The notes beneath the pieces were generated by a model, which had not been told where the DNA came from, did not search any database, and saw only the letters and a list, made by a program, of their open reading frames with translations. Below, piece by piece: positions 3,265-45,355 of a DNA stretch of 64,000 nt (position 1 is its first letter; each line of letters begins with the position of its first letter). This stretch comes from an uncultured Actinomycetota bacterium (GTDB taxonomy: Bacteria > Actinomycetota > Actinomycetes > S36-B12 > UBA10799): assembly GCA_963732355.1 (NCBI GenBank), contig CAVSZD010000007.1:658983-722982 (forward strand), given 5' to 3'. The translations under genes and the position numbers were made by a program.

Positions 3265-4548
3265 TCACACCAGAATGACGTGACTGAGGGTGTAAATGGC
3301 CAACCCGGCCAGCGCACCAACCAGCGTTCCGTTGAGCCGGATGAACTGCAGGTCACGGCCGACCTGGATCTCGATCTTGCGAGAGGTCTCGTCGGCGTCC
3401 CAGCGATCGACGGTCTCGGTGATCAGCTTCGTGATCTCGTCACGGTTGTTGCGAACAACGTGGACCGCAGCGTCCTCGACCCACGTGTTCACCCGATCGC
3501 GACTGGATTCATTCTCGACCAGGTTTCGGCCCAGCGAGACCAGCGAATCAACGATGCGTACCCGCAGGTCCGAGGTCGGGTCGTCCAAGGCGCGCAGCAG
3601 CATCTCCTTGGCCACCGTGCCCGTCGCGTTGAGGGTTCGGGCGACCTCCGGGTGGTCGAGCACACGCATCTTGGCCTGCTCCGCCTTGTACTGCATGTCC
3701 GCGTCGAAACGGAGGTCGTTGGACAGCTTGATCAATGCCTCATCGATCGACTTGCGCAGGGGATGATGGGGGTCGTCGCGGACATCTTGAGCGAAGCGCA
3801 CTGCCTCGCGGTAGACCTTGTTGGCCACCATGTCGTCGGCCCATCGCGGAGACCAGGTCGGCGCTTGCCGCTCAACAACGTCGGTCACCCGGTTGCGGTT
3901 GTCCGCCAGCCAGTCGTACAACGAGCCAGCCACCAAGTCGATGAGCGGCACATGAGCCCGGTCGGTAACGACCTCCCCAAGCAGATTGCCTGCGGGCTCC
4001 GCGATGGGGAACTCCTCGGCACGCTTGCGCAGAAACTCCCCCACAGCCGCACGCACCTGCTCATCGTCGAGCAGGCCCAGACCGGACTTGATCCCCACGG
4101 CGATCTCACTGGATACCCGCCGGGCGTTCTCGTAGTCGCTGATCCACTGACCGACCCGCAACCCGACGTCCAGGGCCTTGATGCGTTGCCGGACCACATC
4201 CTCGGCCAGGAAGTTGGTACCGACGAAGTCCCCGAGGTTGCGCCCGATCGCGTTCTTGCGCGTGGGAATGATCGCCGTGTGCGGGATCGGGATTCCCAGC
4301 GGGTGGCGGAACAGCGCTGTCACTGCGAACCAGTCAGCCAGGGCACCGACCATGCCCGCTTCAGCTGCGGCGCGCACGTAGCCGGCCCAACCCACACCGT
4401 CTCGCTCCAGCACGAAGGCGATCGCGTAGATCACGGCTGCGGCGAGCAGCGCACCGACGGCCACGAGCTTCATGCGGCGCAGTCCGCGCAGTTTCTCCTC
4501 ATCGGCCACTGTCAGGGCCAAGGCACTCATGGGGGCATCTTGCCCCAC
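3265..4548 (-). CDS. DUF445 domain-containing membrane protein
   Basis: 427-aa ORF with N- and C-terminal TM helices and the FRHPLGIPIPHTAIIPTRKNAIG core characteristic of DUF445/YjiN-like proteins. An alternative start is at 4530. Confidence 0.85.
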   Translation of the reverse strand: MGQDAPMSALALTVADEEKLRGLRRMKLVAVGALLAAAVIYAIAFVLERDGVGWAGYVRAAAEAGMVGALADWFAVTALFRHPLGIPIPHTAIIPTRKNAIGRNLGDFVGTNFLAEDVVRQRIKALDVGLRVGQWISDYENARRVSSEIAVGIKSGLGLLDDEQVRAAVGEFLRKRAEEFPIAEPAGNLLGEVVTDRAHVPLIDLVAGSLYDWLADNRNRVTDVVERQAPTWSPRWADDMVANKVYREAVRFAQDVRDDPHHPLRKSIDEALIKLSNDLRFDADMQYKAEQAKMRVLDHPEVARTLNATGTVAKEMLLRALDDPTSDLRVRIVDSLVSLGRNLVENESSRDRVNTWVEDAAVHVVRNNRDEITKLITETVDRWDADETSRKIEIQVGRDLQFIRLNGTLVGALAGLAIYTLSHVILV

Positions 4549-4558
4549 GTCCGGCGGA

Positions 4559-5317
4559 TCAGCCGAGGGCGCGTCGCATGTGCCAATAGGCCGCGATCAG
4601 CACACTGGTGAAGCCCAAGGTCATCACGGGCACGACCGAGACAGCGAAGACCGCCGAGTCAGCCATCGCGCCCCCACCAACCACGGCGACCGCGGTGAAC
4701 GCAGTGGCGGCAACCGCCCCACCGACCACTGTGGCCCGTGCGGCGATCTTCCCCAGAGCGGAGGGCTGGCGCTGCAGGGGATAGGTCTGCGCACTTCGGT
4801 ACCAGCGCACCGCCCAGACAGCAAGCACCACGAGCCCAATCACGGAGAACAGCACCTGCAGGAAGTAGTGCAGCGGCATCCCCGCAACGTCGGCGTGGAA
4901 GAAGCCCGTCATGCCCGTGACAACTGTCCCGGCGTGGGTGAACAGGTCGAGGAACTGGTGGGTCAGCCCTCCGATGAGCAACGAGGAGAACACGCCCAGC
5001 ACCTTCGCCGGTGTCGTCAATCGCACCCGCAGACCCGGCTGCTGGTGCGGCGCCAGCCGTGCGCGCACTCCCGACGGAGCGAACCAGTCAGCGGGTCGCG
5101 CGAGGAAACCGTGCCAGATCACGAAGAGCGCGAAGCCCACGAGCAAGTTGAGGAACAGCAAGCCGAACACCGTGTGCGTCTGGTCGGTCGTGTACCCCAG
5201 AAAGGGCGCGAACAGCGGCAAGTCGGGGGTCATGGCGCCGATCACCAAGGCCGAGGTCGACACCCACCGCACCCTGATGGGCAGGATGGCGGCCGCGTGG
5301 CTGACGGTGAAAGGCAT
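4559..5317 (-). CDS. DUF4184 family membrane protein
   Basis: Begins MPFTVSHAAAILPI, the DUF4184 N-terminal signature, and is multi-TM. Start trimmed from 5338 to 5317. Confidence 0.8.
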   Translation of the reverse strand: MPFTVSHAAAILPIRVRWVSTSALVIGAMTPDLPLFAPFLGYTTDQTHTVFGLLFLNLLVGFALFVIWHGFLARPADWFAPSGVRARLAPHQQPGLRVRLTTPAKVLGVFSSLLIGGLTHQFLDLFTHAGTVVTGMTGFFHADVAGMPLHYFLQVLFSVIGLVVLAVWAVRWYRSAQTYPLQRQPSALGKIAARATVVGGAVAATAFTAVAVVGGGAMADSAVFAVSVVPVMTLGFTSVLIAAYWHMRRALG

Positions 5318-5473: not shown

Positions 5474-5548
5474 GCCCCGTTAGCTCAGTGGTAGAGCACT
5501 CGCCTTGTAAGCGAAAGGTCGTCCGTTCAATCCGGACACGGGGCTCCA
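5474..5548 (+). tRNA. tRNA-Thr (anticodon UGU), CCA encoded
   Basis: Hand-folded cloverleaf. Acceptor stem GCCCCGT/ACGGGGC, D-arm GCTC-AGTGGTA-GAGC, anticodon loop CTTGTAA (TGT at 5506-5508), T-arm GTCCG-TTCAATC-CGGAC, discriminator T, CCA at 5546-5548. Confidence 0.95.
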
Positions 5549-9245: not shown

Positions 9246-9363
9246 TCTGGACAGTCTGCCAACGCCGCTGGGCACACCTGTTGCCACGGCCGCCGTTGTT
9301 GCGAAGTCGCCCGGGCCCTCGCGGGGTGTCCTCGTCACTCCGAACCGTGCCGCGGCGCCCGCG

Positions 9364-9431
9364 TTAGAGGTTGTGGTCCTGGTTAGCGAATCCACGCGTT
9401 GTTTCTCTAACCAACCGCACAACCTCTAACC
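9364..9431. repeat. 68-bp nested-palindrome element (reverse orientation)
   Basis: TTAGAGGTTGTGGTCCTGGTTAGCGAATCCACGCG...CACAACCTCTAA. The left arm equals the reverse complement of the right arm of the 45228 copy. Confidence 0.9.
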
Positions 9432-9515
9432 AACCGTGGCGGGGGCCGCCGTTGTGCAGCGCCCGGGCCCTCGCGGGGTGTCCTCGTCACTCCGAACCGT
9501 GCCGCGGCGCCCGCG

Positions 9516-9583
9516 TTAGAGGTTGTGGTCCTGGTTAGCGAATCCACGCGTGGTTTCTCTAACCAACCGCACAACCTCTAACC
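9516..9583. repeat. 68-bp nested-palindrome element (reverse orientation)
   Basis: Near-identical to the 9364 copy. Confidence 0.9.
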
Positions 9584-9690
9584 AACCGTGGCGGGGGCCA
9601 CCGCCCTGCCAGACCACATCGGCGCCGTGTCGCAACCACCCGCAACGCCGCCCAGCCCGCATGCTGGAATCGATGCCGACTGGAGGTTAG

Positions 9691-14252: not shown

Positions 14253-14467
14253 ACGGCGACACTGCCCCGGGTTTGAATCCCTCAGATGCTCATCGCCGAC
14301 TGGCACGAACTTACTGGGACGCGCCCTGGCGTGTCCCAGTTGTGGATTCGCTGACCAGGACGGCTCGGCCGTCGGGGCACACCACGACCCCGGGTGAACC
14401 TCAACGGCCGGCGGCGGGCACCAGCTGCCCCGCCCCGACTCGCCACGCGGGCCCCGACCTGCCCGCG

Positions 14468-14535
14468 TTAGAGGTTGTGCGGTTCGTTAGCAAATACACG
14501 CGTGGATTCGCTAACCAGGACCACAACCTCTAACC
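14468..14535. repeat. 68-bp nested-palindrome element (forward orientation)
   Basis: TTAGAGGTTGTGCGGTTCGTTAGCAAATACACGCGTGGATTCGCTAACCAGGACCACAACCTCTAACC. Confidence 0.9.
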
Positions 14536-14665
14536 AGGACGCCAGGTCAACCAGGACAACCCGGCCGTCGGGGCACACCACGACCCCGGGTTGAACCTCA
14601 ACGGCCGGCGGCGGGCACCAGCTGCCCCTGCCCCGACTCGCCACGCGGGCCCCGACCTGCCCGCG

Positions 14666-14733
14666 TTAGAGGTTGTGCGGTTCGTTAGCAAATACACGCG
14701 TGGATTCGCTAACCAGGACCACAACCTCTAACC
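14666..14733. repeat. 68-bp nested-palindrome element (forward orientation)
   Basis: Identical to the 14468 copy. Confidence 0.9.
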
Positions 14734-14862
14734 AGGACGCCAGGTCAACCAGGACAACCCGGCCGTCGGGGCACACCACGACCCCGGGTTGAACCCCACC
14801 AGCCGGCGGCCGGCACCAACTGCCCCGCCCCGACTCGCCACGCGGGCCCCGACCTGCCCGCG

Positions 14863-14874
14863 TTAGAGGTTGTG
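14863..14874. repeat. truncated element (left terminal arm only)
   Basis: TTAGAGGTTGTG followed by unrelated sequence. This ends the tandem array. Confidence 0.7.
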
Positions 14875-14978: not shown

Positions 14979-14992
14979 CGAACTGCGTCTAG

Positions 14993-15511
14993 TTACCGGC
15001 CAACAGTGGCGCGGACCTTCTCGACCGCAGACTCAACGCGCTCGCGCAGGTCGGCAGCGGAGTCCTCGGCGCGCTTGCGCAGGTCAGCGGACTGACCCTC
15101 AACGCGCTCGCGCAGGTCGCCGTAGAGACCCTCGAACCGGTCGCTGACCTCGTCGAACTTCGGGAACTCGATCTTGGGCAGGTCGAACGGAAGCTCGAAC
15201 TTGGGCAGCTCGAAGGGCAGCATGGCGAGCAGGCTGTCCTTGGCCTCAGTGGCCTTGTCCACGACCGGCTTCGCAGCCTCGGTGGCCTTGGCAGTGGTGC
15301 TCTTCGCAGCCTCAGTGGCCTTGGCAGTGGTGCTCTTGGCAGCCTCGGTGGCAGCGGCGGTCTTCGCCGGGGCCTTCTTGGCAGCAGCGGCGGTCTTCGC
15401 CGGGGCCTTCTTGGCAGCAGCGGCGGTCTTGGCCGGAGCCTTCTTCGCCGGAGCCTTCTTGGCCGGAGCCTTCTTCGCAGTGGTGGGGGTGGTGTCGGCA
15501 GTGGTAGCCAT
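14993..15511 (-). CDS. Lys/Ala/Pro-rich repeat protein with C-terminal coiled-coil
   Basis: The N-terminus carries AKKAPAK and AKTAAAAKKAP repeats, like basic HupB/HbhA tails, followed by TEAAKSTTAKA repeats. The C-terminus is DLRERVE/DLRKRAE heptad-like. The start abuts the stop of the XRE gene. Confidence 0.75.
   Translation of the reverse strand: MATTADTTPTTAKKAPAKKAPAKKAPAKTAAAAKKAPAKTAAAAKKAPAKTAAATEAAKSTTAKATEAAKSTTAKATEAAKPVVDKATEAKDSLLAMLPFELPKFELPFDLPKIEFPKFDEVSDRFEGLYGDLRERVEGQSADLRKRAEDSAADLRERVESAVEKVRATVGR
15270..15476. repeat. intragenic tandem repeats (33-bp, 36-bp and 15-bp units)
   Basis: CTTCGCAGCCTCGGTGGCCTTGGCAGTGGTGCT about 2.4x, GGCGGTCTTCGCCGGGGCCTTCTTGGCAGCAGC 2x, and GGCCGGAGCCTTCTT 3x. 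These encode the low-complexity N-terminus. Confidence 0.8.
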
Positions 15512-15949
15512 TTACTTGTCCTTTCGTGGGCGTGCGGAACGCTGTTCAGCTGATGGAGCCACACTTGACTGCCCCTGTGAGGCCGAGTGTGATTCCGTTC
15601 CGCGGCGTGCGGCGTTCTCGGATTGGAACGCCGCGTAGATCTCCAACAGCGACTGACGCTGACGGTCGGTCAACGTCGGGTCACCGGCCAGAGCCTGTGT
15701 CACAGACGGCTCTCCTTGCCGGGGCTCAAGGATTCCCGCACGTATGTACAGGGACTCGGCGGAGATCTCAAGTGCCTTGGCAATCTGAGCGAGGATGTCC
15801 GCGCTCGGCTTGCGAAGGCCCCGCTCGACCTGGCTGAGGTACGGGTTGGACACATCTGCTGCCTGCGCCAACTGCCTCAAGGACAACTGGGCTGCAGCGC
15901 GCTGTTCGCGGATGTATTCACCCACCGTCGCCATATCGATCCGAGCCAT
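15512..15949 (-). CDS. XRE-family helix-turn-helix transcriptional regulator
   Basis: LSLRQLAQAADVSNPYLSQVERGLRKPSADILAQIAKAL is a canonical HTH_3 motif. Start trimmed to MARIDMATV. Confidence 0.85.
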   Translation of the reverse strand: MARIDMATVGEYIREQRAAAQLSLRQLAQAADVSNPYLSQVERGLRKPSADILAQIAKALEISAESLYIRAGILEPRQGEPSVTQALAGDPTLTDRQRQSLLEIYAAFQSENAARRGTESHSASQGQSSVAPSAEQRSARPRKDK

Positions 15950-16020: not shown

Positions 16021-16989
16021 TCACATGTCCGCGAACTCCCGAAGAGTTGGCGAACTGGCGATGAACCCGACCGGCCGACCGCCGCCAAGCACCGGCGAGC
16101 GCAGGTGTTCCTCGATCAGCGCAGCGCGCACGCCGAGCCGGGCCAGTGACGCAGCTGCCACCACCGGCCGAGCCCGCTGGGAACCATCGCAGATCTTCAA
16201 GGCGATGCCGTATCGGCCCCCGCCGTGCTCCAGGGTCATCGCTTGCACCCCTTCGGCGCCGTCCTTGGCCACCAACCCGGGCACAGCCCGCATCAAGTGC
16301 GTCACATCACGGCCACTGCCACCGGTGAACTCGGGGTAATCCCGAAGAGCCCCCAGCACTCGGACGCCGTCGGAGTCTCTGGCCAACCTGGTCATCCCCC
16401 TGGCAAGGGCGACCAGCGGCAGTCCCCACAGCGGGGCTCCGCAACCGTCGGCACTAACCGGTCCCGGGGTTACGCCGGTCAACTGCGCGATGGTGTCCTT
16501 CAAGGACACCTGTAGCGGATGCTGCGGGTCCAGGTAGGTCGAAATGTCCCAGCCGTTGAGCTCACAGGCCCACACCATCCCCGCATGCTTGCCCGAGCAG
16601 TTCATGACGATGCGGTTGCGGACCCCACCGGCTGCCAAGTACTGCTCGCGGGTCGCGTCGTCATAAGGCAGGTCCGCTGGGCACTGGAGCGCATCCTCGG
16701 CCAACCCGGCCTGCGCCAGCAGTGCGCGGACCCCCGCCAGGTGGAAGGGCTCCCCGGAGTGTGATGCAGACGCCAATGCCAGACCTGAACGCTGCAGGGG
16801 CACCCCGAGTCGCAGCAGCCCGACCGCCTGGAAAGGTTTGACGGCACTGCGCGGATAGATCACTTCGTGCGGATCCCCCAGCGCCGCGACTACCTCGCCG
16901 CCCTCATCAACGACCACAACATGACCGCGGTGGGATGACTCGACGGACCCGGACCTCGTGACTTCCACCAGCACCGGGGCTTCAGTCAC
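16021..16989 (-). CDS. L-asparaginase II family protein
   Basis: The N-terminal VEVTRSGSVESSHRGHVVVVD and YPRSAVKPFQA motifs are typical of the asparaginase_II (Rhizobium-type) family. Confidence 0.85.
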   Translation of the reverse strand: MTEAPVLVEVTRSGSVESSHRGHVVVVDEGGEVVAALGDPHEVIYPRSAVKPFQAVGLLRLGVPLQRSGLALASASHSGEPFHLAGVRALLAQAGLAEDALQCPADLPYDDATREQYLAAGGVRNRIVMNCSGKHAGMVWACELNGWDISTYLDPQHPLQVSLKDTIAQLTGVTPGPVSADGCGAPLWGLPLVALARGMTRLARDSDGVRVLGALRDYPEFTGGSGRDVTHLMRAVPGLVAKDGAEGVQAMTLEHGGGRYGIALKICDGSQRARPVVAAASLARLGVRAALIEEHLRSPVLGGGRPVGFIASSPTLREFADM

Positions 16990-17540
16990 GAATCTGTGCC
17001 CAGGGCGCTTTCGGGCTGGGCCTCCCCGACTCGGTACCGCCTTGCGAGCTCCGCGGTCAGCACCCCGTGCACGTCGTGGACCTTGTGCCGCACGTCGGAG
17101 ACCTCACGTTCCATGTCGCGCAACTCGTCGAGACGTGAATCAAGTTCAGCGTCGGCCATGGTCGAGTACTCGTCGAGGCCCGAGCGTGCAATCAACCGCT
17201 CCACGGCACGACGGCCTCCGCCGGGGGAATCCACCACATCCGGGCCGGACGGGCGAACCCCGGGACCCATCTGCGAGGCGAGCGAGGCGACCAACGCGGA
17301 AAGGTCGAGTTCATCCTCGCCGTCTTGGCGACCGTCACGACGAAGGGACACGTTGGCTTCGAGGATGTCGATGCGTCCGTGCAGCATGCGCCGAAGGTAT
17401 GACAGCCAGGCCTCTTCCCGGTCGACCTGAAGCCGGCGCTCGCGCAACTCGACCAAGGGGATCGTCTGCAGGTCGGCCAGGAACTCCCCCTCCAGAATCC
17501 TGTCCAGAGCACGTTTCCCCTGCGGCTTCGCTAGCGACAC
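16986..17540 (-). CDS. RsiG-like protein (candidate c-di-GMP-binding anti-sigma factor homologue)
   Basis: Two helices carry E-x3-S-x2-R-x3-H-x3-(D/G): EAWLSYLRRMLHGRID and EREVSDVRHKVHDVHG. A C-terminal TAELARRY follows. This resembles the RsiG E-x3-S-x2-R-x3-Q-x3-D repeats as I recall them. Confidence 0.55.
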   Translation of the reverse strand: MSLAKPQGKRALDRILEGEFLADLQTIPLVELRERRLQVDREEAWLSYLRRMLHGRIDILEANVSLRRDGRQDGEDELDLSALVASLASQMGPGVRPSGPDVVDSPGGGRRAVERLIARSGLDEYSTMADAELDSRLDELRDMEREVSDVRHKVHDVHGVLTAELARRYRVGEAQPESALGTDS

Positions 17541-17644: not shown

Positions 17645-17740
17645 CAACCCCTCCCGCCAGCCCGCCGCACAGCAGGCAAAGCTGGAAACCGACAACTGAA
17701 TCGCCGAAAAACCACAACCCCTCCCTCGCGCCAGCCCGCC
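17645..17740. repeat. intergenic repeat related to the 28.1-28.5 kb array
   Basis: Direct repeat CAACCCCTCCC(TC)GCCAGCCCGCC at 17645-17666 and 17715-17740. It flanks the core GCAAAGCTGGAAACCG (17676-17691), which recurs at 28160-28175 and 28284-28299. Confidence 0.6.
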
Positions 17741-17907
17741 AATGCCCACACCCCTGCGACGCGAGACCGCCGTTCACTCGAATGGGTGACCTGGACCCTG
17801 TCGGCGGCCACCACCGGCTAACCCGCTCGGGCGAAATCGGCGCCGATCGGCCTCACCCCGGCATCAGGGGGCTAAGAACCCAAATCCGGACGGTCGATGA
17901 AACCGGC

Positions 17908-25043: not shown

Positions 25044-25943
25044 TCACCACCGCCGCTGGAAACGGTTCCGGAGGTAGATCGCCAGGGCATTCATCATCAG
25101 CAGAATGCCCAGGAGGATGATGCACAACGCTGCCGCGAGAATCTGGAACTCCTCGCGGGACTGCGAGATCCAGTTGTAGATCTGGATCGGCATCACCGTG
25201 TATGCACTCATCAGCCCGTCCGGGTTGAAGGTGATGAACGTGACCGCGCCCAACAACAGCAGCGGTGCCGCCTCACCGATGGCCCGGGAGAGCGCGAGGA
25301 TCGCACCCGTGGCGATACCGGGGACTGCTGCCGGCATCACCTGGCGAGAGATCGTCTGCCACTGGGTAGCGCCCAGCGCCAGTGAACCCGCGCGAATCGA
25401 CTGGGGTACCGCCCGAATGGCCTCGCGCGACGAGATGATGACCACGGGCAGCACCAGCAGCGAGAGGGTCAGCGCCGCGGTGATCACGGTCTGCCCCAGG
25501 GCCAGGGCCCGAGCGATGACGCCGAGACCGAGGATGCCGTAGACGATGGACGGAACGGCAGCCAGGTTCTGGATGTTGATCTCGACCAGCTTGTTGAAGC
25601 GCTTGGTCGGGTCCGCGTACTCCTCCAGGTAGATCGCCGCCATGATCCCCACCGGCAAACAGATGAACGCCGTGGTCACGATCACCCAGATCGATCCCAT
25701 GATGGCCGACTGGGCGCCGGCCTTCTCGGGGAACCGGATGCTCGGCATGTTCTGCCACAGCGTGGGCGTCAGACCCGGCCAACCCTCATGGAACACGAAG
25801 GCCAGCAGCGCCGCCAGCGTGATGATCCCGACCGAGAGGGCGGCGAACAGGAGCCAGCGGAAGCCGCGGTCCTTGAGCGGAGGGCCGGTGTCCTGCAGGT
25901 CTTGTTTGACCTGCTCCCCGATCCCGGCGAACATCGTGCTCAT
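25044..25943 (-). CDS. pstA: phosphate ABC transporter permease
   Basis: Six-TM permease with the EAA-like loop [13 protein letters not shown]. Start overlaps the pstC stop. Confidence 0.92.
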
Positions 25944-26878
25944 TCGTACACCTCACGGTATTTGCGCACCATACGGATGCTGAACATGTTCATCACGAAC
26001 GTCATCAGGAACAGCAACGCACCGACGGCGAAGATCGTCTGGTACCCGATGGATCCGGTCGGCTGGTCCCCCGAGCCAGCCGCAGCGATGAAGGACGTCA
26101 TGGTCTGCATGCCGTCCAGGACGTTGAGGCTGAGATTGGGCTGCAGACCGGCTGCCACGGCGACGATCATCGTCTCTCCGATGGCCCGCGAGATCCCGAG
26201 CACGAAGGCCGCCACGATGCCCGAGAGAGCAGCCGGGACGACCACCTTCAACGTCACCTGACGCTTACTCGAGCCCAGCGCATATGCACCCTCGCGCAGC
26301 CCGCGCGGCACTGCGGACATTGCGTCCTCCGACAGCGACGCGATGGTCGGGATGATCATCACACCCATGACCAGACCAGCCGACAGAGCGTTGAACACCT
26401 CGGTCTGCGGCCAGATGTTCTGCAGCAGCACCTGCGTCACGAATTCAAGGGCGAAGAAGCCGAAGATCACCGTGGGGATACCCGCGAGGACCTCGAGAAT
26501 CGGCTTGAGGATACGGCGGGTGCGGTCAGCGGCGTACTCGGAGAGGTACATCGCGGTGAGCAAACCGATCGGCAGTGCCACAAGGCAAGCGATGCCGGTG
26601 ATGATCAGGGTTCCCGCAACCAGCGGCAGCACCCCGAACTCCGGATCGGCGAACAGCGGCGACCACTCGGTACCGAACAGGAAGTCTGTCACCGGGACCG
26701 TCTGGAAGAACTGGAAGGCGGGGATGAACAACGCCCACAGGATTCCCAGGGTCGTGAGGATGGAAACGGCGGCGCATGCCACCAGGACCACCTTGATGGC
26801 TTTCTCCCCGTAGCGCGGACTTGACCGCTGCAGGGAGAACTCAGTGCTCCCTGCAGCGGTCAGTGTTGTGGAGTCCAT
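25940..26878 (-). CDS. pstC: phosphate ABC transporter permease
   Basis: Permease with GISRAIGETMIV loop, located between pstS and pstA. Confidence 0.92.
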   Translation of the reverse strand: MDSTTLTAAGSTEFSLQRSSPRYGEKAIKVVLVACAAVSILTTLGILWALFIPAFQFFQTVPVTDFLFGTEWSPLFADPEFGVLPLVAGTLIITGIACLVALPIGLLTAMYLSEYAADRTRRILKPILEVLAGIPTVIFGFFALEFVTQVLLQNIWPQTEVFNALSAGLVMGVMIIPTIASLSEDAMSAVPRGLREGAYALGSSKRQVTLKVVVPAALSGIVAAFVLGISRAIGETMIVAVAAGLQPNLSLNVLDGMQTMTSFIAAAGSGDQPTGSIGYQTIFAVGALLFLMTFVMNMFSIRMVRKYREVYE

Positions 26879-26884
26879 GTCGGG

Positions 26885-27865
26885 TTAGGAGAGCCCCGCC
26901 GCCGACGTGGCGTCCGCGTACTCGCTCTTCAATTCCGCCAACTGCTCCTCGTTCAACGGGATGAACAATGCCGCCTCGGCGATCGCTGCGTCATTCTCCA
27001 CGAAGTACTGGAGGAAAGAGGCGAACGCCGGGTTCGAACCCAGTGCCTGGATCGACGGGTAGATGAACAGCGGGCGCCCCAGCGGCTTGTAGGTGCCGTC
27101 CTGGACCGTCTCCGGGCTGGGTGCTACACACCCGTCGCCGGCGTCGATCTGCACGGCGCGGACCTTGTCCTGGTTCTCTTCGTAGTAGGTGTACCCGAAG
27201 TAGCCCATGCCCCCGGTCGAACCAGAGACACCCGTCACGACCACGTTGTCGTCCTCGGAGGGGGTGTAGTCGGTGCGGCTGGCGCCTTCTTCACCCACGA
27301 TCACGTCGGTGAAGTAGTCGAACGTGCCCGAGTCGGTGCCAGGTCCGAAGAGCTTTATCTGCTCATCGGGGAATGCCGGGTCGACCTGGTTCCAGTTGTT
27401 GACCTGCGAGTCTGGCTCCCAGATCTTCTTGAGCTGCTCCACCGTCAGGCACTGCGCGAAGTCGTTCGAGGTGTTCACGACCACCGTCAGGGCGTCGTTG
27501 GCAACGACCATCTCCTGGAAGTCGACGCCTGCCTCCTTGCAGTTGGCCGCCTCGTCGTCCTCGATCGGCCGAGACGCGTCGTTCATGTCGGTCTCACCGC
27601 GGCAGAACTTCTCGAAGCCACCGCCAGTGCCCGAGGTTCCGACCGTGACGTTGATGTCGGGGTTGGTCTCCTTGAAGATCTCGGCCGCCGCCGAGGTCAG
27701 CGGCGCGACGGTGGAACTACCGTCCACGCGCACCGAACCGGATGTTCCCCCACCATCGGCAGCCGGCGACTCGGTTGAATCGTTGTTGCCTCCGCCACAG
27801 GCGGCCAGCGTCAGAGCGCCGGCGCACACAACGCCGGCGACCTTGATTGAACGGGCGAATTTCAC
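26885..27865 (-). CDS. pstS: phosphate ABC transporter substrate-binding lipoprotein
   Basis: Lipobox LTLAAC, VDGSSTVAPL and GTSGTGGGF PstS motifs. GTG start 27865, preceded by GGGAGGAAAAGG. Confidence 0.92.
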   Translation of the reverse strand: MKFARSIKVAGVVCAGALTLAACGGGNNDSTESPAADGGGTSGSVRVDGSSTVAPLTSAAAEIFKETNPDINVTVGTSGTGGGFEKFCRGETDMNDASRPIEDDEAANCKEAGVDFQEMVVANDALTVVVNTSNDFAQCLTVEQLKKIWEPDSQVNNWNQVDPAFPDEQIKLFGPGTDSGTFDYFTDVIVGEEGASRTDYTPSEDDNVVVTGVSGSTGGMGYFGYTYYEENQDKVRAVQIDAGDGCVAPSPETVQDGTYKPLGRPLFIYPSIQALGSNPAFASFLQYFVENDAAIAEAALFIPLNEEQLAELKSEYADATSAAGLS

Positions 27866-27944
27866 CCTTTTCCTCCCATTGTTCGGTCATTACTGACGGT
27901 CATGACGCTAGGGAGGTGGCGTGACGCTGGACTGAGCGCCGGAT

Positions 27945-27960
27945 GGATCACAGGTGAACA
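27945..27960 (-). promoter_or_regulatory. PHO-box-like sequence upstream of pstS (weak candidate)
   Basis: The minus strand reads GTTCACCTGTGATCC. GTTCACC resembles the Streptomyces PHO-box core, and CCTGTGA resembles the corynebacterial PhoR half-site. Single copy only. Confidence 0.25.
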
Positions 27961-28038
27961 GCGTCCGTCTGGTACGAGAAACATCCTGGGAGACATCCAC
28001 GGTTTCCCAACCGTCCGCCGTCCCGTGAGCAAAACGTG

Positions 28039-28052
28039 ATCGCACGTGCGAT
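28039..28052. promoter_or_regulatory. perfect 14-bp palindrome (operator candidate)
   Basis: ATCGCACGTGCGAT, about 175 nt upstream of the pstS start and directly abutting the repeat array. Confidence 0.3.
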
Positions 28053-28071
28053 TATTCGCTCCCGGCGAGGG

Positions 28072-28490
28072 CCACCATCACCCACCAGCCAAACCGGACC
28101 CCCGGCGGCTGGCGCACGGTTTGCCGCCACCCACGGGCCAAACCGCGCCCAGCGGCGAAGCAAAGCTGGAAACCGGCAAACCAATCGCCCGATCCCACCA
28201 TCACCCACCGGCCAAACCGGACCCCCGGCGGCCTGGCGCACGGTTTGCCGCCACCCACCGGCCAAACCGCGCCCAGCGGCGAAGCAAAGCTGGAAACCGG
28301 CAAACCAATCGCCCGATCCCACCATCACCCACCGGCCAAACCGGACCCCCGGCCTGGCGCACGGTTTGCCGCCACCCACCGGCCAAACCGGACCCCCGGC
28401 CTGGCGCACGGTTTGCCGCCACCCACCGGCCAAACCGGACCCCCGGCCTGGCGCACGGTTTGCCGCCACCCACCGGCCAACCGCGCCCAA
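28072..28490. repeat. compound tandem repeat array (~123-bp unit x2 then 47-bp sub-unit x~3.5)
   Basis: CCACCATCACCCACC starts at 28072, 28195 and 28319. CCAAACCGGACCCCCGGCCTGGCGCACGGTTTGCCGCCACCCACCGG recurs with a 47-bp period from about 28336. Each unit contains the imperfect inverted repeat CGGCCAAACCG / CGGTTTGCCG. Confidence 0.85.
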
Positions 28491-28491
28491 C

Positions 28492-29382
28492 TCAAACAGC
28501 TGGAACGTGCTCCACGACTGTGGCCTCATGCGAGCGGTGGAACACCACGGCGGCCCCCGGTGCCAAAGTGAAGTCCGCAACGTCACCAACCCCGAGGCGG
28601 TGCGATACGTGCTGGATCAAAACCGGCAGGATCGGGCGGTGGGTGCAGATGACCAGCCCCGTCGGCAGGTCGAGCAGGCTGTCGACCCGTTTGAGTGCGG
28701 CCGTCTGCGAGGCGACAAAACCCTCTTCACTGAGCAGGGTCTCGTGCTCAAGGGGTGCGTGCGTCTGATGGACGAACGGGCGGACCGTGTCCAGACAGCG
28801 CAGTGCATCTGAGGAGTGCACTTTGCGCACACCGAACGCCTCCAAAATGTAGGTGAGCCGGCTGGCCGCCACAATCCCTGCCGGCGACAAAGGCCTCTCC
28901 GCGTCGGCGACGCCCTTGTAGTCGGCGCGTCGCATCGCCTCCGTGTGCCGCAGAATGACCAGCGGCGAGGTGACCGGGGTGTTGAGGGCCTCCCGGACGA
29001 GGTCGCCGTCACGCGGATAACTGAGCATGGCGATCGCAGCTTCGGCACGCAGCCATCGAACCTCGTCGATCTCCTTGTTGGGCGCGAAGCCGGGGCCCCC
29101 CGGGCTCTCCCGCCCGACCCAGTACTCGACGGTCTTGGAGCGGGCCTCCACCTTGTAACGCTGCGTTGTCAAAGGCATCCCCAGCACGACGTCGCTGCCG
29201 GTCTCCTCGATCGTCTCGCGGCGCGCGGCCTCAACCGGGATCTCGTCATTGTCGAGCTTGCCTTTCGGCAAGGACCAGTCGTCCTGCCGGGGACGGTGCA
29301 GCACGCAGACCATCGGGCCGAGCGGACCGTCGCGCAGCAACACGACCCCGGCCGCCCGGATGGGCGTCGCCGCTTTGGCCAT
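28492..29382 (-). CDS. mutT1: NUDIX hydrolase fused to histidine-phosphatase (SixA-like) domain, MutT1-type
   Basis: Nudix box GKLDNDEIPVEAARRETIEETG, then the RHT histidine phosphatase motif (LVILRHTEA). Start overlaps the upstream stop (ATGA). Confidence 0.8.
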   Translation of the reverse strand: MAKAATPIRAAGVVLLRDGPLGPMVCVLHRPRQDDWSLPKGKLDNDEIPVEAARRETIEETGSDVVLGMPLTTQRYKVEARSKTVEYWVGRESPGGPGFAPNKEIDEVRWLRAEAAIAMLSYPRDGDLVREALNTPVTSPLVILRHTEAMRRADYKGVADAERPLSPAGIVAASRLTYILEAFGVRKVHSSDALRCLDTVRPFVHQTHAPLEHETLLSEEGFVASQTAALKRVDSLLDLPTGLVICTHRPILPVLIQHVSHRLGVGDVADFTLAPGAAVVFHRSHEATVVEHVPAV

Positions 29383-31112
29383 CAGCGCAGCCGGGCTTTC
29401 TTGTGCGCTCGCTTCACTTCGGGCCAGAGTTCCACGAAGTCGTTACGCGCGAACAGCTCCTGCTCGAACTCGAACTCGTGCAATAGACCCAGGCTGAAGC
29501 CGGAGAGCCCATCGACCGCTGAGTCCGCGGCGAGGGTCTTGAGTGTCTGCTGAGCGACCCACGCATCCTGGTGCTCACCGAGCACCTCGGTGACACCTGA
29601 CAACGCCTTGGCAAAACGTTTCACGTTCTCGCCCATCACTGGGGCGACGGCCTCCGCGGCGTATCTGGCCTTCTTCGCGCGGATCCGCGCCTCGTGCCAG
29701 GGGTGCGCCTCCCCGTCGAGCTCGAGCAGGGCGACCTCCTTGCTGAGCTTCTTCCACGCCTTGTCCACCAAAGCAGGCAGCACATCCTCGCCCGCCTCGT
29801 CGGCGGCGGCGTTCAGGCGCGGAGCCTGCGCCGCATCCACAAGCGCATCAAGGAAGTCCCGGTACCTCTGGGAGACCATCGCCTTCAGCGCGTGGTCGCG
29901 GGCGTTGTGCCATTGCTGCGAGAGTGCGGGGTCCACAACGGCCCTGATCAGCGAGGCGAAATCCTCCCCCACCTCGTCCGCATGGTGATCGATGCGCTCC
30001 TGCAGCACTTCGGTGTCCCGACTGACCCCGAGCTCGCCGGCGATCCAGCCGAGTTCCGTACGCAAGGCCTCAGCCCATTGCACGTCGAGCATCGGCTCGA
30101 AGGCCTTCAGACCGCTGCGTAGCCTCCTGGCCGCAACCCGCATCTGATGCACGCTGTCAGGCAGGTCGGCACGAACCCGGATGTCCTGGGTCAGGAACGC
30201 CCTGGCGTGGCGGCGGATGTGGGCAGTCACCGCTGCCCCGGCAGGGTCTTGCGGACCGACGATCTGCGGTTCGGGGACGTCCGGCGGCTCCTGGATCACC
30301 GGCCCCAGGACCGTCAATTCCTGCGGCGTCGACCCGGGGACCGCTCCGGCGGCGACCAGCACGTCGAGGACGACATCCAGGGATGCGTCCGGCGCGAGGG
30401 CTTGTACCTCCAGTTCCCGGAAGCGCGCGGCGATGCGGTCGCCGTCGAGTACGGAAACGGTGTCGTCCACGATTTGGGCGAACGCAATGCCGTCCGAGCC
30501 GGTCAGGACATGCGGGGTGCGTTCGACCCGCAATGCGGCCACCGGGACGACCTGCGCGTTGCGCGCGTAGGCGGTGATGAGGTTCGCGATGTCCTCCGGA
30601 ACCTCACCGGAACCGCCGGCGTCCAGGGGCAGACGAACATCGTCGCCGCCATCAGTACCGGAACCGGGCAGGTGCAGGTGCCAGCCCTGGTCATCCCCAC
30701 CCTCGATTCGCTGCAAGGTCGCACCCCAGCGAGCCAGCCGCAGGTCTGCGGTGTCGTGATAGACCGACAAAGTACTTCGCATCGCGGTTCGCTTGACCTT
30801 CGCCACCGCGGACAGATCCGGCAGCCGGAACAGGCCATGAACCCGCAGCCGACGTTCCGCGACGGGCACCGGCGGTTCATTCGGTGCAGCGGCAGGCACT
30901 GGCGGGCTCGACGGTTCAGGGTCCACCTGCGGCGGCTCCAGACCTGCCTCGGCATGGTCGATCGTCACGACATCCACAGGTGGGGACACCTCCACGGCGT
31001 TCTCGGGAGCGGGGTAGATCTCGTCGGCGGGGTCGTCGGGCAACTGGGCGGCCCGGGCATCCGGCGGGGTGGGATCCTCCCGGACACCCTGGTCCGGTTC
31101 CGTCATTGCCAT
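29382..31112 (-). CDS. CYTH and CHAD domain-containing protein
   Basis: Pro-rich N-terminus, then a CYTH tunnel region (LSVYHDTADLRLARWGATLQRIEGG..GWHLHLPG), then CHAD helices (HQMRVAARRLRSGLKAF, HEARIRAKKARYAAE). Start ATG 31112 overlaps the ppk1 stop. Confidence 0.85.
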   Translation of the reverse strand: MAMTEPDQGVREDPTPPDARAAQLPDDPADEIYPAPENAVEVSPPVDVVTIDHAEAGLEPPQVDPEPSSPPVPAAAPNEPPVPVAERRLRVHGLFRLPDLSAVAKVKRTAMRSTLSVYHDTADLRLARWGATLQRIEGGDDQGWHLHLPGSGTDGGDDVRLPLDAGGSGEVPEDIANLITAYARNAQVVPVAALRVERTPHVLTGSDGIAFAQIVDDTVSVLDGDRIAARFRELEVQALAPDASLDVVLDVLVAAGAVPGSTPQELTVLGPVIQEPPDVPEPQIVGPQDPAGAAVTAHIRRHARAFLTQDIRVRADLPDSVHQMRVAARRLRSGLKAFEPMLDVQWAEALRTELGWIAGELGVSRDTEVLQERIDHHADEVGEDFASLIRAVVDPALSQQWHNARDHALKAMVSQRYRDFLDALVDAAQAPRLNAAADEAGEDVLPALVDKAWKKLSKEVALLELDGEAHPWHEARIRAKKARYAAEAVAPVMGENVKRFAKALSGVTEVLGEHQDAWVAQQTLKTLAADSAVDGLSGFSLGLLHEFEFEQELFARNDFVELWPEVKRAHKKARLR

Positions 31113-42201: not shown

Positions 42202-42245
42202 GCCACCATTGAACCAGTGGTCGCCGCCCCAAGCGGGACCGTTGG

Positions 42246-42313
42246 TTAGAGGTTGTGCTGTTGGTTAGCGTTTCAACGCGTGGATTCGCTAACCAACGGA
42301 ACAACCTCTAACC
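42246..42313. repeat. 68-bp nested-palindrome element (sub-family 2)
   Basis: TTAGAGGTTGTGCTGTTGGTTAGCGTTTCAACGCGTGGATTCGCTAACCAACGGAACAACCTCTAACC, in the divergent promoter region of the methyltransferase gene and pgm. Confidence 0.9.
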
Positions 42314-42380
42314 AGGGACGGATGTACGCCAAACGGCATAGGCCGGGAACGCGCAACCGAAGCCGACTACCCTGCCAGAC

Positions 42381-45031: not shown

Positions 45032-45062
45032 CGCGCCCCGACCCAGCCCGCAAGCGCCCGCG

Positions 45063-45130
45063 TTAGAGGTTGTGCGGTTCGTTAGCGAATACACGCGTGG
45101 ATTCGCTAACCAGGACCACAACCTCTAACC
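45063..45130. repeat. 68-bp nested-palindrome element (forward orientation)
   Basis: TTAGAGGTTGTGCGGTTCGTTAGCGAATACACGCGTGGATTCGCTAACCAGGACCACAACCTCTAACC. Confidence 0.9.
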
Positions 45131-45227
45131 AGGAGCACCGCGGGGTTGCCGCACCGCCCCGCCGGCGCCCCGGCGTCGCACCTCCCGAGGCGTCGCCGGG
45201 CGCCCCGACCGCTCGCACCCCACCGCG

Positions 45228-45295
45228 TTAGAGGTTGTGCGGTTCGTTAGCGAATCCACGCGTGGATTCGCTAACCAGGACCACAACCTCTAACC
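45228..45295. repeat. 68-bp nested-palindrome element (forward orientation, perfect inner 30-mer palindrome)
   Basis: The inner GTTAGCGAATCCACGCGTGGATTCGCTAAC is perfectly self-complementary. This copy starts 165 bp after the previous one. Confidence 0.9.
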
Positions 45296-45355
45296 AGGAG
45301 CACCGTTGCACCGACCCGCCGGCACCGAAGGGGAGGCAACGCGGGCCCCAAACCC

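Follow-up and report, generated by a model that had tools for sequence, protein, structure and literature searches.

A strain-variable, non-coding repeat array, probably a mosaic minisatellite, between mutT1 and pstS in an uncultured actinobacterium

The DNA analysed here, a stretch of 64,000 nucleotides from an uncultured actinobacterium that is referred to below as the window, carries on its minus strand a polyphosphate operon followed by genes for phosphate uptake. In the direction of transcription these are polyphosphate kinase (PPK, from 31112), a CHAD protein (29382 to about 31106), a MutT1-like protein that joins Nudix and histidine-phosphatase domains (Nudix+His_Phos_1; 28492–29382), PstS (26885–27865), and PstC (25940–26878), as given by gene calls that included the twin locus of a second assembly, L001. 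The 626-bp spacer between mutT1 and pstS holds a non-coding compound tandem array at 28072–28491, whose modules are read on the gene (minus) strand. The array directly abuts the stop codon of the MutT1-like gene (28492–28494), with a gap of 0 nt, and it ends about 13 nt short of a conserved pstS regulatory block (27866–28058, minus strand), which bounds it and lies outside it. A preliminary description had placed a tandem array at 28072–28490, in the gap that separates the polyphosphate operon from the regulatory region of pstS; the gene context is correct, and the array is real but extends to 28491. Tandem Repeats Finder (TRF) reported two overlapping arrays, one at 28072–28390 (period 124, 2.6 copies, 96% matches, score 596) and one at 28326–28480 (period 47, 3.3 copies, 100% matches, score 310), and exact-match counts gave three occurrences of a 47-mer against 0.00 expected, with none in 100 shuffles. 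The G+C content of the array is 72%, compared with 66% for the window. By its proteins, the window belongs to an uncultured actinobacterial lineage that goes under the label Candidatus Nanopelagicales in the sources.

The array is composed of two modules. Module a is a hairpin module of 47 nt, GCGGCAAACCGTGCGCCAGGCCGGGGGTCCGGTTTGGCCGGTGGGTG, with variants of 49 and 50 nt, while module b has 74 nt, ATGGTGGGATCGGGCGATTGGTTTGCCGGTTTCCAGCTTTGCTTCGCCGCTGGGCGCGGTTTGGCCGGTGGGTG, and every a and b module is closed by the same 17-nt junction, GGTTTGGCCGGTGGGTG. In gene direction, the stop codon is followed by tail-a-a-a-b-a-b-a, then by ATGGTGG and unique sequence, so that the array contains five a and two b modules. 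The tail (28467–28491), which begins right after the MutT1-like stop codon, matches the final 25 nt of a b-type module, GTTGGGCGCGGTTGGCCGGTGGGTG. After it stand three identical 47-nt a-modules (28420–28466, 28373–28419, and 28326–28372), which match exactly and account for the TRF period of 47. Next come the first b-module (28252–28325, 74 nt), with the core GGCGATTGGTTTGCCGGTTTCCAGCTTTGC, the reverse complement of GCAAAGCTGGAAACCGGCAAACCAATCGCC; a fourth a-module (28202–28251), a 50-nt variant with an extra CCG; the second b-module (28128–28201, 74 nt), a GGCCCGTGGGTG variant; and a fifth a-module (28079–28127), a 49-nt variant. The promoter-side end consists of ATGGTGG (28072–28078), the 7-nt start of another b-module. 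All modules, tail and end piece included, lie on the minus strand in direct orientation, and only an arm of 10–12 nt within module a is inverted (GGCAAACCG with its imperfect complement CGGTTTGGCC). The inverted repeat noticed earlier, CGGCCAAACCG / CGGTTTGCCG, is indeed found in every a-module. The preliminary description had read the array as a unit of about 123 bp decaying into a 47-bp sub-unit. Both repeats exist, but no decay needs to be assumed, as the 123-bp unit is a plus b and the 47-bp run is a series of a-modules without an intervening b. Similarly, the core GCAAAGCTGGAAACCGGCAAACCAATCGCC attributed to the long units is present in them (28160–28189 and 28284–28313), while a second copy elsewhere in the window had been overlooked. 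[quoted passage not shown]

Several long open reading frames (ORFs) run across the array. They are spurious, as had been suspected, because none of the unit lengths (47, 49, 50, and 74 nt) is divisible by 3 and because the conspecific assembly L001 has different ORFs there and does not keep these; no ORF across the array has a Pfam match. A coding repeat was rejected on the same grounds.

The same spacer was compared across relatives. The intraspecies comparison involves two conspecific genomes, both metagenome assemblies: the window and L001 (ENA ERZ25039462 contig_14644), whose MutT1 and PstS are 100% identical to those of the window and whose flanks are 98.5–98.9% identical. The spacer of L001 measures 772 bp and reads tail-a-b-a-b-a-b-a-b-a (five a and four b modules). 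The two genomes therefore have five a-modules each and differ by two whole b-modules, they share the same private variant of the promoter-proximal b, and a homopolymer in the tail differs between them (GGTTGG in the window vs GGTTTGG in L001). Comparison of the two loci shows that the difference in module order corresponds exactly to the loss or gain of whole b-modules between shared junctions. The two closest relatives have no array. The spacer of L115 (contig_20674; MutT1 94% identical) is 227 bp long with the promoter block intact, and at the array position it carries only one junction-like sequence, TGGTCGGGGTGAGGCCGGTCGGTGG, followed by the promoter block; that of L116 (contig_8515, 3.45 Mb; PstS 90% identical) is 207 bp long, with an intact promoter block that begins 7 nt past the mutT1 stop codon. 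In the next group (L002–L004, MutT1 82% identical), the spacer is 605 bp in all three assemblies and contains two tandem b-like units without module a, together with a further element bearing terminal inverted repeats. Relatives at 66–71% identity have spacers of 286–788 bp with quite different repeats, namely nested-hairpin elements in L007 and L094 and a long hairpin in L093, and in eleven more distant loci that share this gene order the spacer measures 108–211 bp.

This comparison across relatives suggests that a compact spacer is likely the ancestral state and indicates that the array is a lineage-specific, strain-variable addition. The mutT1–pstS spacer is, judging from the same loci, a place where several kinds of repeat settled independently. 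The idea of a hypervariable spacer, one of three roles put forward at the outset, thus gains support from the differing module order in two assemblies of one species and from the missing array in the two closest relatives. The preliminary description had proposed comparing copy number across strains, which proved variable between the window and L001, and had named absence or variability in close relatives, with no effect on pst or ppk expression, as something that would count against its own reading; the absence and the variability were observed.

The conserved pstS regulatory block occupies the last ~200 nt before the pstS start and shows a mean column identity of 76% in an alignment of seven sequences from seven loci. 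It contains a distal TCACGttttGCTCACGG, GTTCACC, TAGCGTC, GTCAGnnATGAC, and the ribosome-binding site GGGAGGA. Invariant across the alignment are the distal TCACG....GCTCAC, TAGCGTC, GTCAG..ATGAC, and the ribosome-binding site, as well as TGTTCACCT, after which xCAC, CTCA, and GTCAC follow at 11-nt steps in a PHO-box-like arrangement. The GTTCACC core corresponds to the actinobacterial PHO-box direct-repeat unit (PMC2275107). With up to 1 mismatch, this core has a single match in the spacer (27953–27959, minus strand, 94 nt before the start codon) and none within the array. A PHO-box array was therefore rejected, as the array has no GTTCACC-like core and the phased boxes sit in the conserved block, and the suggestion that the array might serve as a binding platform for PhoP/RegX3-type regulators is not supported, as the sole PHO-box core lies in the promoter block and never in the array. 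These comparisons indicate that the array is not part of the conserved phosphate-responsive control region of pstS. Since it is absent from close relatives that have kept the promoter block, it is probably also dispensable for the phosphate-responsive pstS promoter.

Module b is not confined to the array. A single copy of its core lies at 17669–17731 on the plus strand, in the spacer that separates an RsiG-like gene (16986–17540, minus strand) from a divergently oriented DUF4388/PatA_N gene (plus strand), both assigned by Pfam matches. In a window-wide repeat search (repeat family D10), the 30-mer at 17676–17705 within this copy was 87% identical to the b-core, and C-rich direct repeats flank the copy at about 17645–17668 and 17715–17742. 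The relationship was recovered in both directions: an nhmmer model built from the pstS-spacer copies only detected the 17.6-kb copy (E = 1.6e-4), and a model built from the RsiG-spacer copies only detected both b-modules of the array (E = 3e-5). The RsiG-spacer copy is kept at the orthologous place in L110, which belongs to the same genome as L115; the 16-nt centre AGGCAAAGCTGGAAAC is identical at 16 of 16 positions in this orthologue, compared with 71% identity over the whole alignment, and the L110 spacer aligns with the whole b unit and its C-rich flanks at 69–70% identity over 106–112 nt (E = 8e-9). The L110/L115 genome also carries a second, more L002-like b copy, and the two copies flank an insert of ~240 nt with a GGCGTAnCTTTCnGGTTGATCAAG module that is likewise present in the pstS spacer of L002. 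Homology between the L002 units and the window's module b is weaker, with a blastn E of 3e-4 in a small database and an E of about 1 for an nhmmer model from L002 alone searched against the window, so this relationship appears to rest partly on the bridging copies.

The search for further copies covered 733 kb, comprising the 64-kb window and about 670 kb of relatives' loci. No other b-core was found in this sequence, and module a occurred only in the arrays of the window and L001. Exact-pattern scans of collections of genome contigs and metagenome contigs for module copies returned nothing. Among the matches listed in a protein-guided scan of genome contigs, relatives were up to 49% identical, and a metagenome scan gave nine loci, none useful for further copies. 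A plasmid or phage origin was rejected, as blastn gave no match. Taken over the loci compared, these alignments show module b to be a dispersed element of ~70–100 nt, present at a second intergenic locus and in related genomes. As far as searched, with no match in Rfam, among plasmids or phages, or in the collection scans, the sequence family is undescribed so far.

Module a is predicted to fold into an internal 10-bp stem with G·U pairs or, together with the preceding junction, into a 12-bp stem. Single-module folds barely exceed those of shuffled sequences (z = −0.9 to −1.5), while lower scores were obtained for the full a+b unit (z = −2.9) and for the sense strand of the array region (z = −4.6); the 72 nt right after the stop codon are predicted to form two hairpins (−40.7 kcal/mol, z = −2.7). 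No U-tract or T-run follows the array hairpins, and a terminator scan of 27500–28900 found no site on the minus strand. An amplified ancestral terminator was first favoured on the basis of the hairpin after mutT1 in L093 (z = −5.9) and was then rejected; in the closest relatives, which lack the array, there is no hairpin anywhere between the two genes, so no ancestral terminator was amplified. Rfam searches of 27000–29500 at E up to 10 returned no relevant family, and at the gathering threshold the whole window yielded only a SAM riboswitch and a tRNA; a known RNA family was therefore rejected. The b-core does not appear to be an RNA structure either, given that the 5-bp stem GCAAC/GTTGC of L002 is lost in the window copies. 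An RNA element, also among the initial suggestions, is therefore without positive support, considering the missing Rfam match, the modest single-module z-scores, and a b-core stem that is not maintained in other species. An array of G-quadruplexes or i-motifs was rejected as well: the array peaks at a G4Hunter score of 1.48, short of the threshold of 1.5 that is exceeded at 41 other sites in the window, and there is no canonical G4 motif.

Among known systems, the closest parallels are repetitive extragenic palindromes (REPs) and their mosaic arrangements (BIMEs), and the mycobacterial-type MIRU-VNTR repeats. A REP is an imperfect palindrome of 20–40 nt whose foot carries a conserved GTAG tetranucleotide, and the copy number of tandem BIMEs at a locus varies between strains (PMC3333891). 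Like BIME-2/REP arrays, the array alternates two short hairpin-capable modules in tandem at the 3' flank within a co-oriented gene pair, its units at the locus are nearly identical, and their number differs between strains. Unlike these, it has the GTAG/CTAC foot in none of its a or b modules. Its modules all run in direct orientation and contain an inverted arm of 10–12 nt, where a BIME would have a whole REP and inverted REP paired across linkers. In the 733 kb scanned, module a is found here only and module b at two loci; REP/BIME elements are dispersed over a genome in hundreds of copies. A RAYT (TnpA-REP) transposase, such as accompanies REP families, is not known for this genome. MIRUs, by comparison, are dispersed to about 40 loci and contain short ORFs overlapping the stop and start codons on either side. 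They reportedly also occur in a phosphate-regulatory operon, in the senX3-regX3 spacer, as Supply et al. are said to have described in 1997 and 2000. The array resembles MIRU-VNTR loci in being an actinobacterial intergenic repeat with units of tens of bp between co-oriented genes and a copy number that is polymorphic between strains, and it falls under the MIRU-VNTR definition of an intergenic, polymorphic tandem repeat of 40–100 bp; it differs in its unit lengths, which do not preserve a reading frame, and in its ORFs, which the window and L001 do not have in common. Given that no GTAG foot and, in the 733 kb scanned, no high copy number was seen, and that coupled small ORFs are missing, the array is best described as resembling the REP/BIME and MIRU families in the way it works, without belonging to them.

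Taken together, the array is probably a non-coding mosaic minisatellite (VNTR), that is, a BIME/MIRU-like polymorphic intergenic repeat at the 3' flank of the ppk-CHAD-mutT1 operon, a reading held here with some reserve. The kind is already known, namely the polymorphic intergenic mosaic repeat. Its growth may have begun at one junction-like sequence adjoining the mutT1 stop codon, beside which a short, dispersed b-type element would have been acquired first; this element, together with a local hairpin-forming piece, may then have expanded by unequal recombination or replication slippage at the shared junctions. The only activity that seems likely for such an array would be that of a stack of G+C-rich hairpins in the 3' untranslated region (3' UTR) of the upstream operon, which could reduce transcription running on into pstS and protect the upstream mRNA against 3' exonucleases. 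In Escherichia coli, the tandem BIME array REP325 has such effects: it partially blocks transcription toward the gene downstream and stabilises the mRNA on its upstream side (bioRxiv 10.64898/2026.03.23.713779). The predicted hairpins of the present array would be rightly placed for a comparable effect but have no U-tract, and a role as 3'-UTR hairpin, terminator, or stabiliser is at most putative. The weak single-module folds and the missing U-tract and ancestral terminator count against it. Against the minisatellite reading as a whole also stand the small basis of two conspecific metagenome assemblies, the indel errors indicated by frame-broken genes in sister loci, which make the module counts less secure, and the weaker homology to L002.

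What a neutral repeat leaves unexplained is the conserved island of the b-core, which hints at a sequence-specific function. One way to accommodate it would be a protein-binding platform of variable copy number, in which the b-core or the motif GGTTTG(G)CC / GGCAAACC is a putative transcription factor site whose amplification upstream of pstS would tune expression of pstS or of the ppk operon, or would titrate the factor. Motif density is consistent with this, with about 14 copies of the GGTTTG(G)CC-type motif (9–10 nt) in the array, and with seven occurrences there of CGGTTTGGCCGG (up to 1 mismatch) against one elsewhere in the window and 0.8 expected. Moreover, the b-core is kept in a divergent promoter region at the other locus in two genomes, and its orientation relative to pstS is the same in the window and L002. 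A precedent exists in Streptomyces lividans/coelicolor, where a 12-nt repeat, ACTCACCCCCGC, occurs in eight degenerate copies in the spacer between the mutT-like SCO4143 and pstS, ahead of the PHO boxes. A comparable role was proposed for these repeats in S. lividans, in which they lower promoter activity about two-fold, their deletion doubling it (PMC2605767). The array occupies the same syntenic position, from a mutT-like gene to pstS and upstream of the PHO boxes. Both are C-rich, the array on the strand antisense to pstS, and the array repeats the motif (A/C)(T/C)CACCCACCGG about eight times. However, modules of 47 and 74 nt stand against repeats of 12 nt, and the Streptomyces consensus ACYCASCCMNSV has no match at up to 1 mismatch in 28072–28491, with 95 matches window-wide against 80 expected, a chance level; homology to the Streptomyces repeats was therefore rejected. 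The two nearest relatives have intact promoters without any array, the array is devoid of PHO-box cores and lies upstream of all conserved promoter elements, and no candidate regulator was identified, all of which makes a binding platform doubtful.

A bolder and improbable variant takes the ~55-nt b-core itself (GCAAAGCTGGAAACCGGCAA...CGA..CCAC) to be a cis-regulatory site of a new regulator or alternative sigma factor, which when amplified would form a copy-number-variable switch. If this were true, the array could be a decoy platform or a battery of antisense promoters, and sub-populations could differ in how they weigh polyphosphate synthesis against phosphate uptake.

It is also conceivable, with a very small probability, that repeats were collapsed or expanded during assembly, in which case the array, or at least the order and number of its modules, would be an artefact. 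The short-read contigs of relatives break 60–160 bp past mutT1, frame-broken genes in sister assemblies of long-read style suggest indel errors, and the homopolymer of the tail changes length between the window and L001. Nevertheless, the same modules and the same promoter-side variant b are found in two independent assemblies, which makes an artefact unlikely as far as the existence of the array is concerned, although the exact module counts would be less secure. The flanks of the two loci differ by 1.1–1.5%, which points to two different populations rather than one data set assembled twice. In addition, arrays of 420–570 bp lie well inside single long reads, and contigs of 890 kb and 461 kb with names of the 'contig_N' type suggest long-read assembly.

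The least probable reading makes the b-core a plus-strand promoter or a small RNA gene and the array a set of tandem antisense promoters directed into mutT1-CHAD-ppk, which, if true, would couple polyphosphate metabolism to another regulon. The other b-core copy adjoins rsiG, which encodes the anti-sigma factor of WhiG, and points toward the DUF4388/PatA_N gene, ~185 nt upstream of its likely start. The copies also share GAAA-N14-(G)CCGA(A/T), which loosely recalls sigma-28/WhiG promoters. Yet no copy matches the pattern that has been used to find WhiG promoters, T(A/C)AA-N16-GCCGA no more than 200 bp from a start codon (PMC12871210): the 17.6-kb copy has GCCGA but TGGA at the −35 position at N16, and the array copies read GCCCGA, so a WhiG or ECF promoter in the b-core was rejected. 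With no sigma-70-like promoter match in 27500–28900, no Rfam family, a small b-core stem that is not conserved, and close relatives that do without the array, little speaks for transcription from this element.

If the array is a mosaic minisatellite as proposed, it would be a further example of repeats that take hold and multiply where operons end, at the 3' side, here in an uncultured freshwater or soil actinobacterial lineage, and its practical value would be that of a strain-resolving VNTR marker. For annotators, it serves as a warning, since the array yields spurious ORFs of 200 aa and breaks short-read assemblies. The analysis also places the true control region of pstS in the conserved ~200-nt block with PHO-box-like repeats. 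Should the b-core prove regulatory, the varying arrays would offer a natural copy-number series for studying how polyphosphate storage and phosphate uptake are coupled. Elsewhere in the window, another element, the nested hairpin GTTAGAGGTTGTG, behaves much more like a REP family.

In this clade, repeat elements have landed recurrently in the mutT1-pstS spacer. Variants of a nested-hairpin architecture that also occurs in the window lie precisely within this spacer in two relatives, as GGTTAGAGAA...TTCTCTAACC at 5028-5240 of locus L007 (fold z = -10.9) and as GGGAGAGAT...ATCCCTCCC at 3886-4673 of locus L094. A further dispersed element of the clade is marked by the module GGCGTAnCTTTCnGGTTGATCAAGnGGGAG, which is common to the pstS spacer of L002 (2700-2850), a locus that also has two b-like units there, and to the RsiG spacer of the sister-genome locus L110 (2225-2261), with 87% identity over 38 nt; in L002 it belongs to a ~150-bp element whose ends are GCGTACTTTT...AAAAGTACGC.

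In the window itself, the nested-hairpin elements form a dispersed family of ~73-nt units with the layout GTTAGAGGTTGTG-N6-GTTAGCnnnnnACGCGTGGnnnnGCTAAC-N6-CACAACCTCTAAC. The 64 kb hold about 9 copies (2734-2806, 9363-9435, 9515-9587, 14467-14539, 14665-14737, 42245-42317, 45062-45134, 45227-45299 and a partial copy at 14860-14874), with 18 arm matches against 1.3 expected and DNA-fold z-scores of -3.6 to -8.9. Several copies are contained in segments that are duplicated in tandem (152, 198 and 165 bp; arrays 9288-9603 and 14354-14874 of TRF), and comparison of the family with Rfam returned no match. The family looks much more REP/MITE-like than the tandem array between mutT1 and pstS.

Next to this array, the pstS regulatory block (27866-28058, minus strand) is kept across seven loci and comprises four PHO-box-like units in 11-nt phase, the first being GTTCACC (27953-27959); the inverted repeat GTCAGnnATGAC, likewise conserved, lies in what is presumed to be the 5' UTR. 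At its distal edge lies a perfect 14-bp palindrome, ATCGCACGTGCGAT (28039-28052), which the conspecific locus L001 retains and L002 retains with a single mismatch; it is not retained in the nearest, array-less relatives L115 and L116 or in more distant ones.

The second copy of the b-core, the core of array module b, is located between the RsiG-like and DUF4388/PatA_N genes, where (within 17645-17742) it is flanked on both sides by direct repeats CAACCCCTCCC(G/TCGCG)CCAGCCCGCC (~17645-17668 and 17715-17742) that make it an incipient 70-bp tandem duplication; this layout resembles a b-module flanked by its junction repeats. Upstream of the DUF4388/PatA_N gene, the 20-nt sequence GTTCACTCGAATGGGTGACC (17772-17791), with an inverted GTTCAC/GTGACC pair, is probably an operator site and is identical in L110, where the surrounding spacer is only ~71% identical.

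Several sister assemblies contain split genes (CHAD gene, asparaginase and pstA in the gene calls of L094, L095, L112 and L116), which suggests indel errors in these long-contig metagenome assemblies. Single-base array differences such as GGTTGG versus GGTTTGG should not be over-read.

The window also contains a tRNA gene (5474-5545, plus strand) and a SAM riboswitch (RF00162; 11293-11398, plus strand, 79.5 bits). The protein of ORF 14989-15564 (minus strand) has no Pfam match; the ORF carries in-frame coding repeats of 33 nt and 15 nt (15032-15480; AAGAAGGCnCCGGCC in the sense direction), which encode a Lys/Ala/Pro-rich repeat that is kept in the sister genome (L110, 4566-5009) and may resemble the basic, repeat-rich tails that histone-like proteins carry in actinobacteria.
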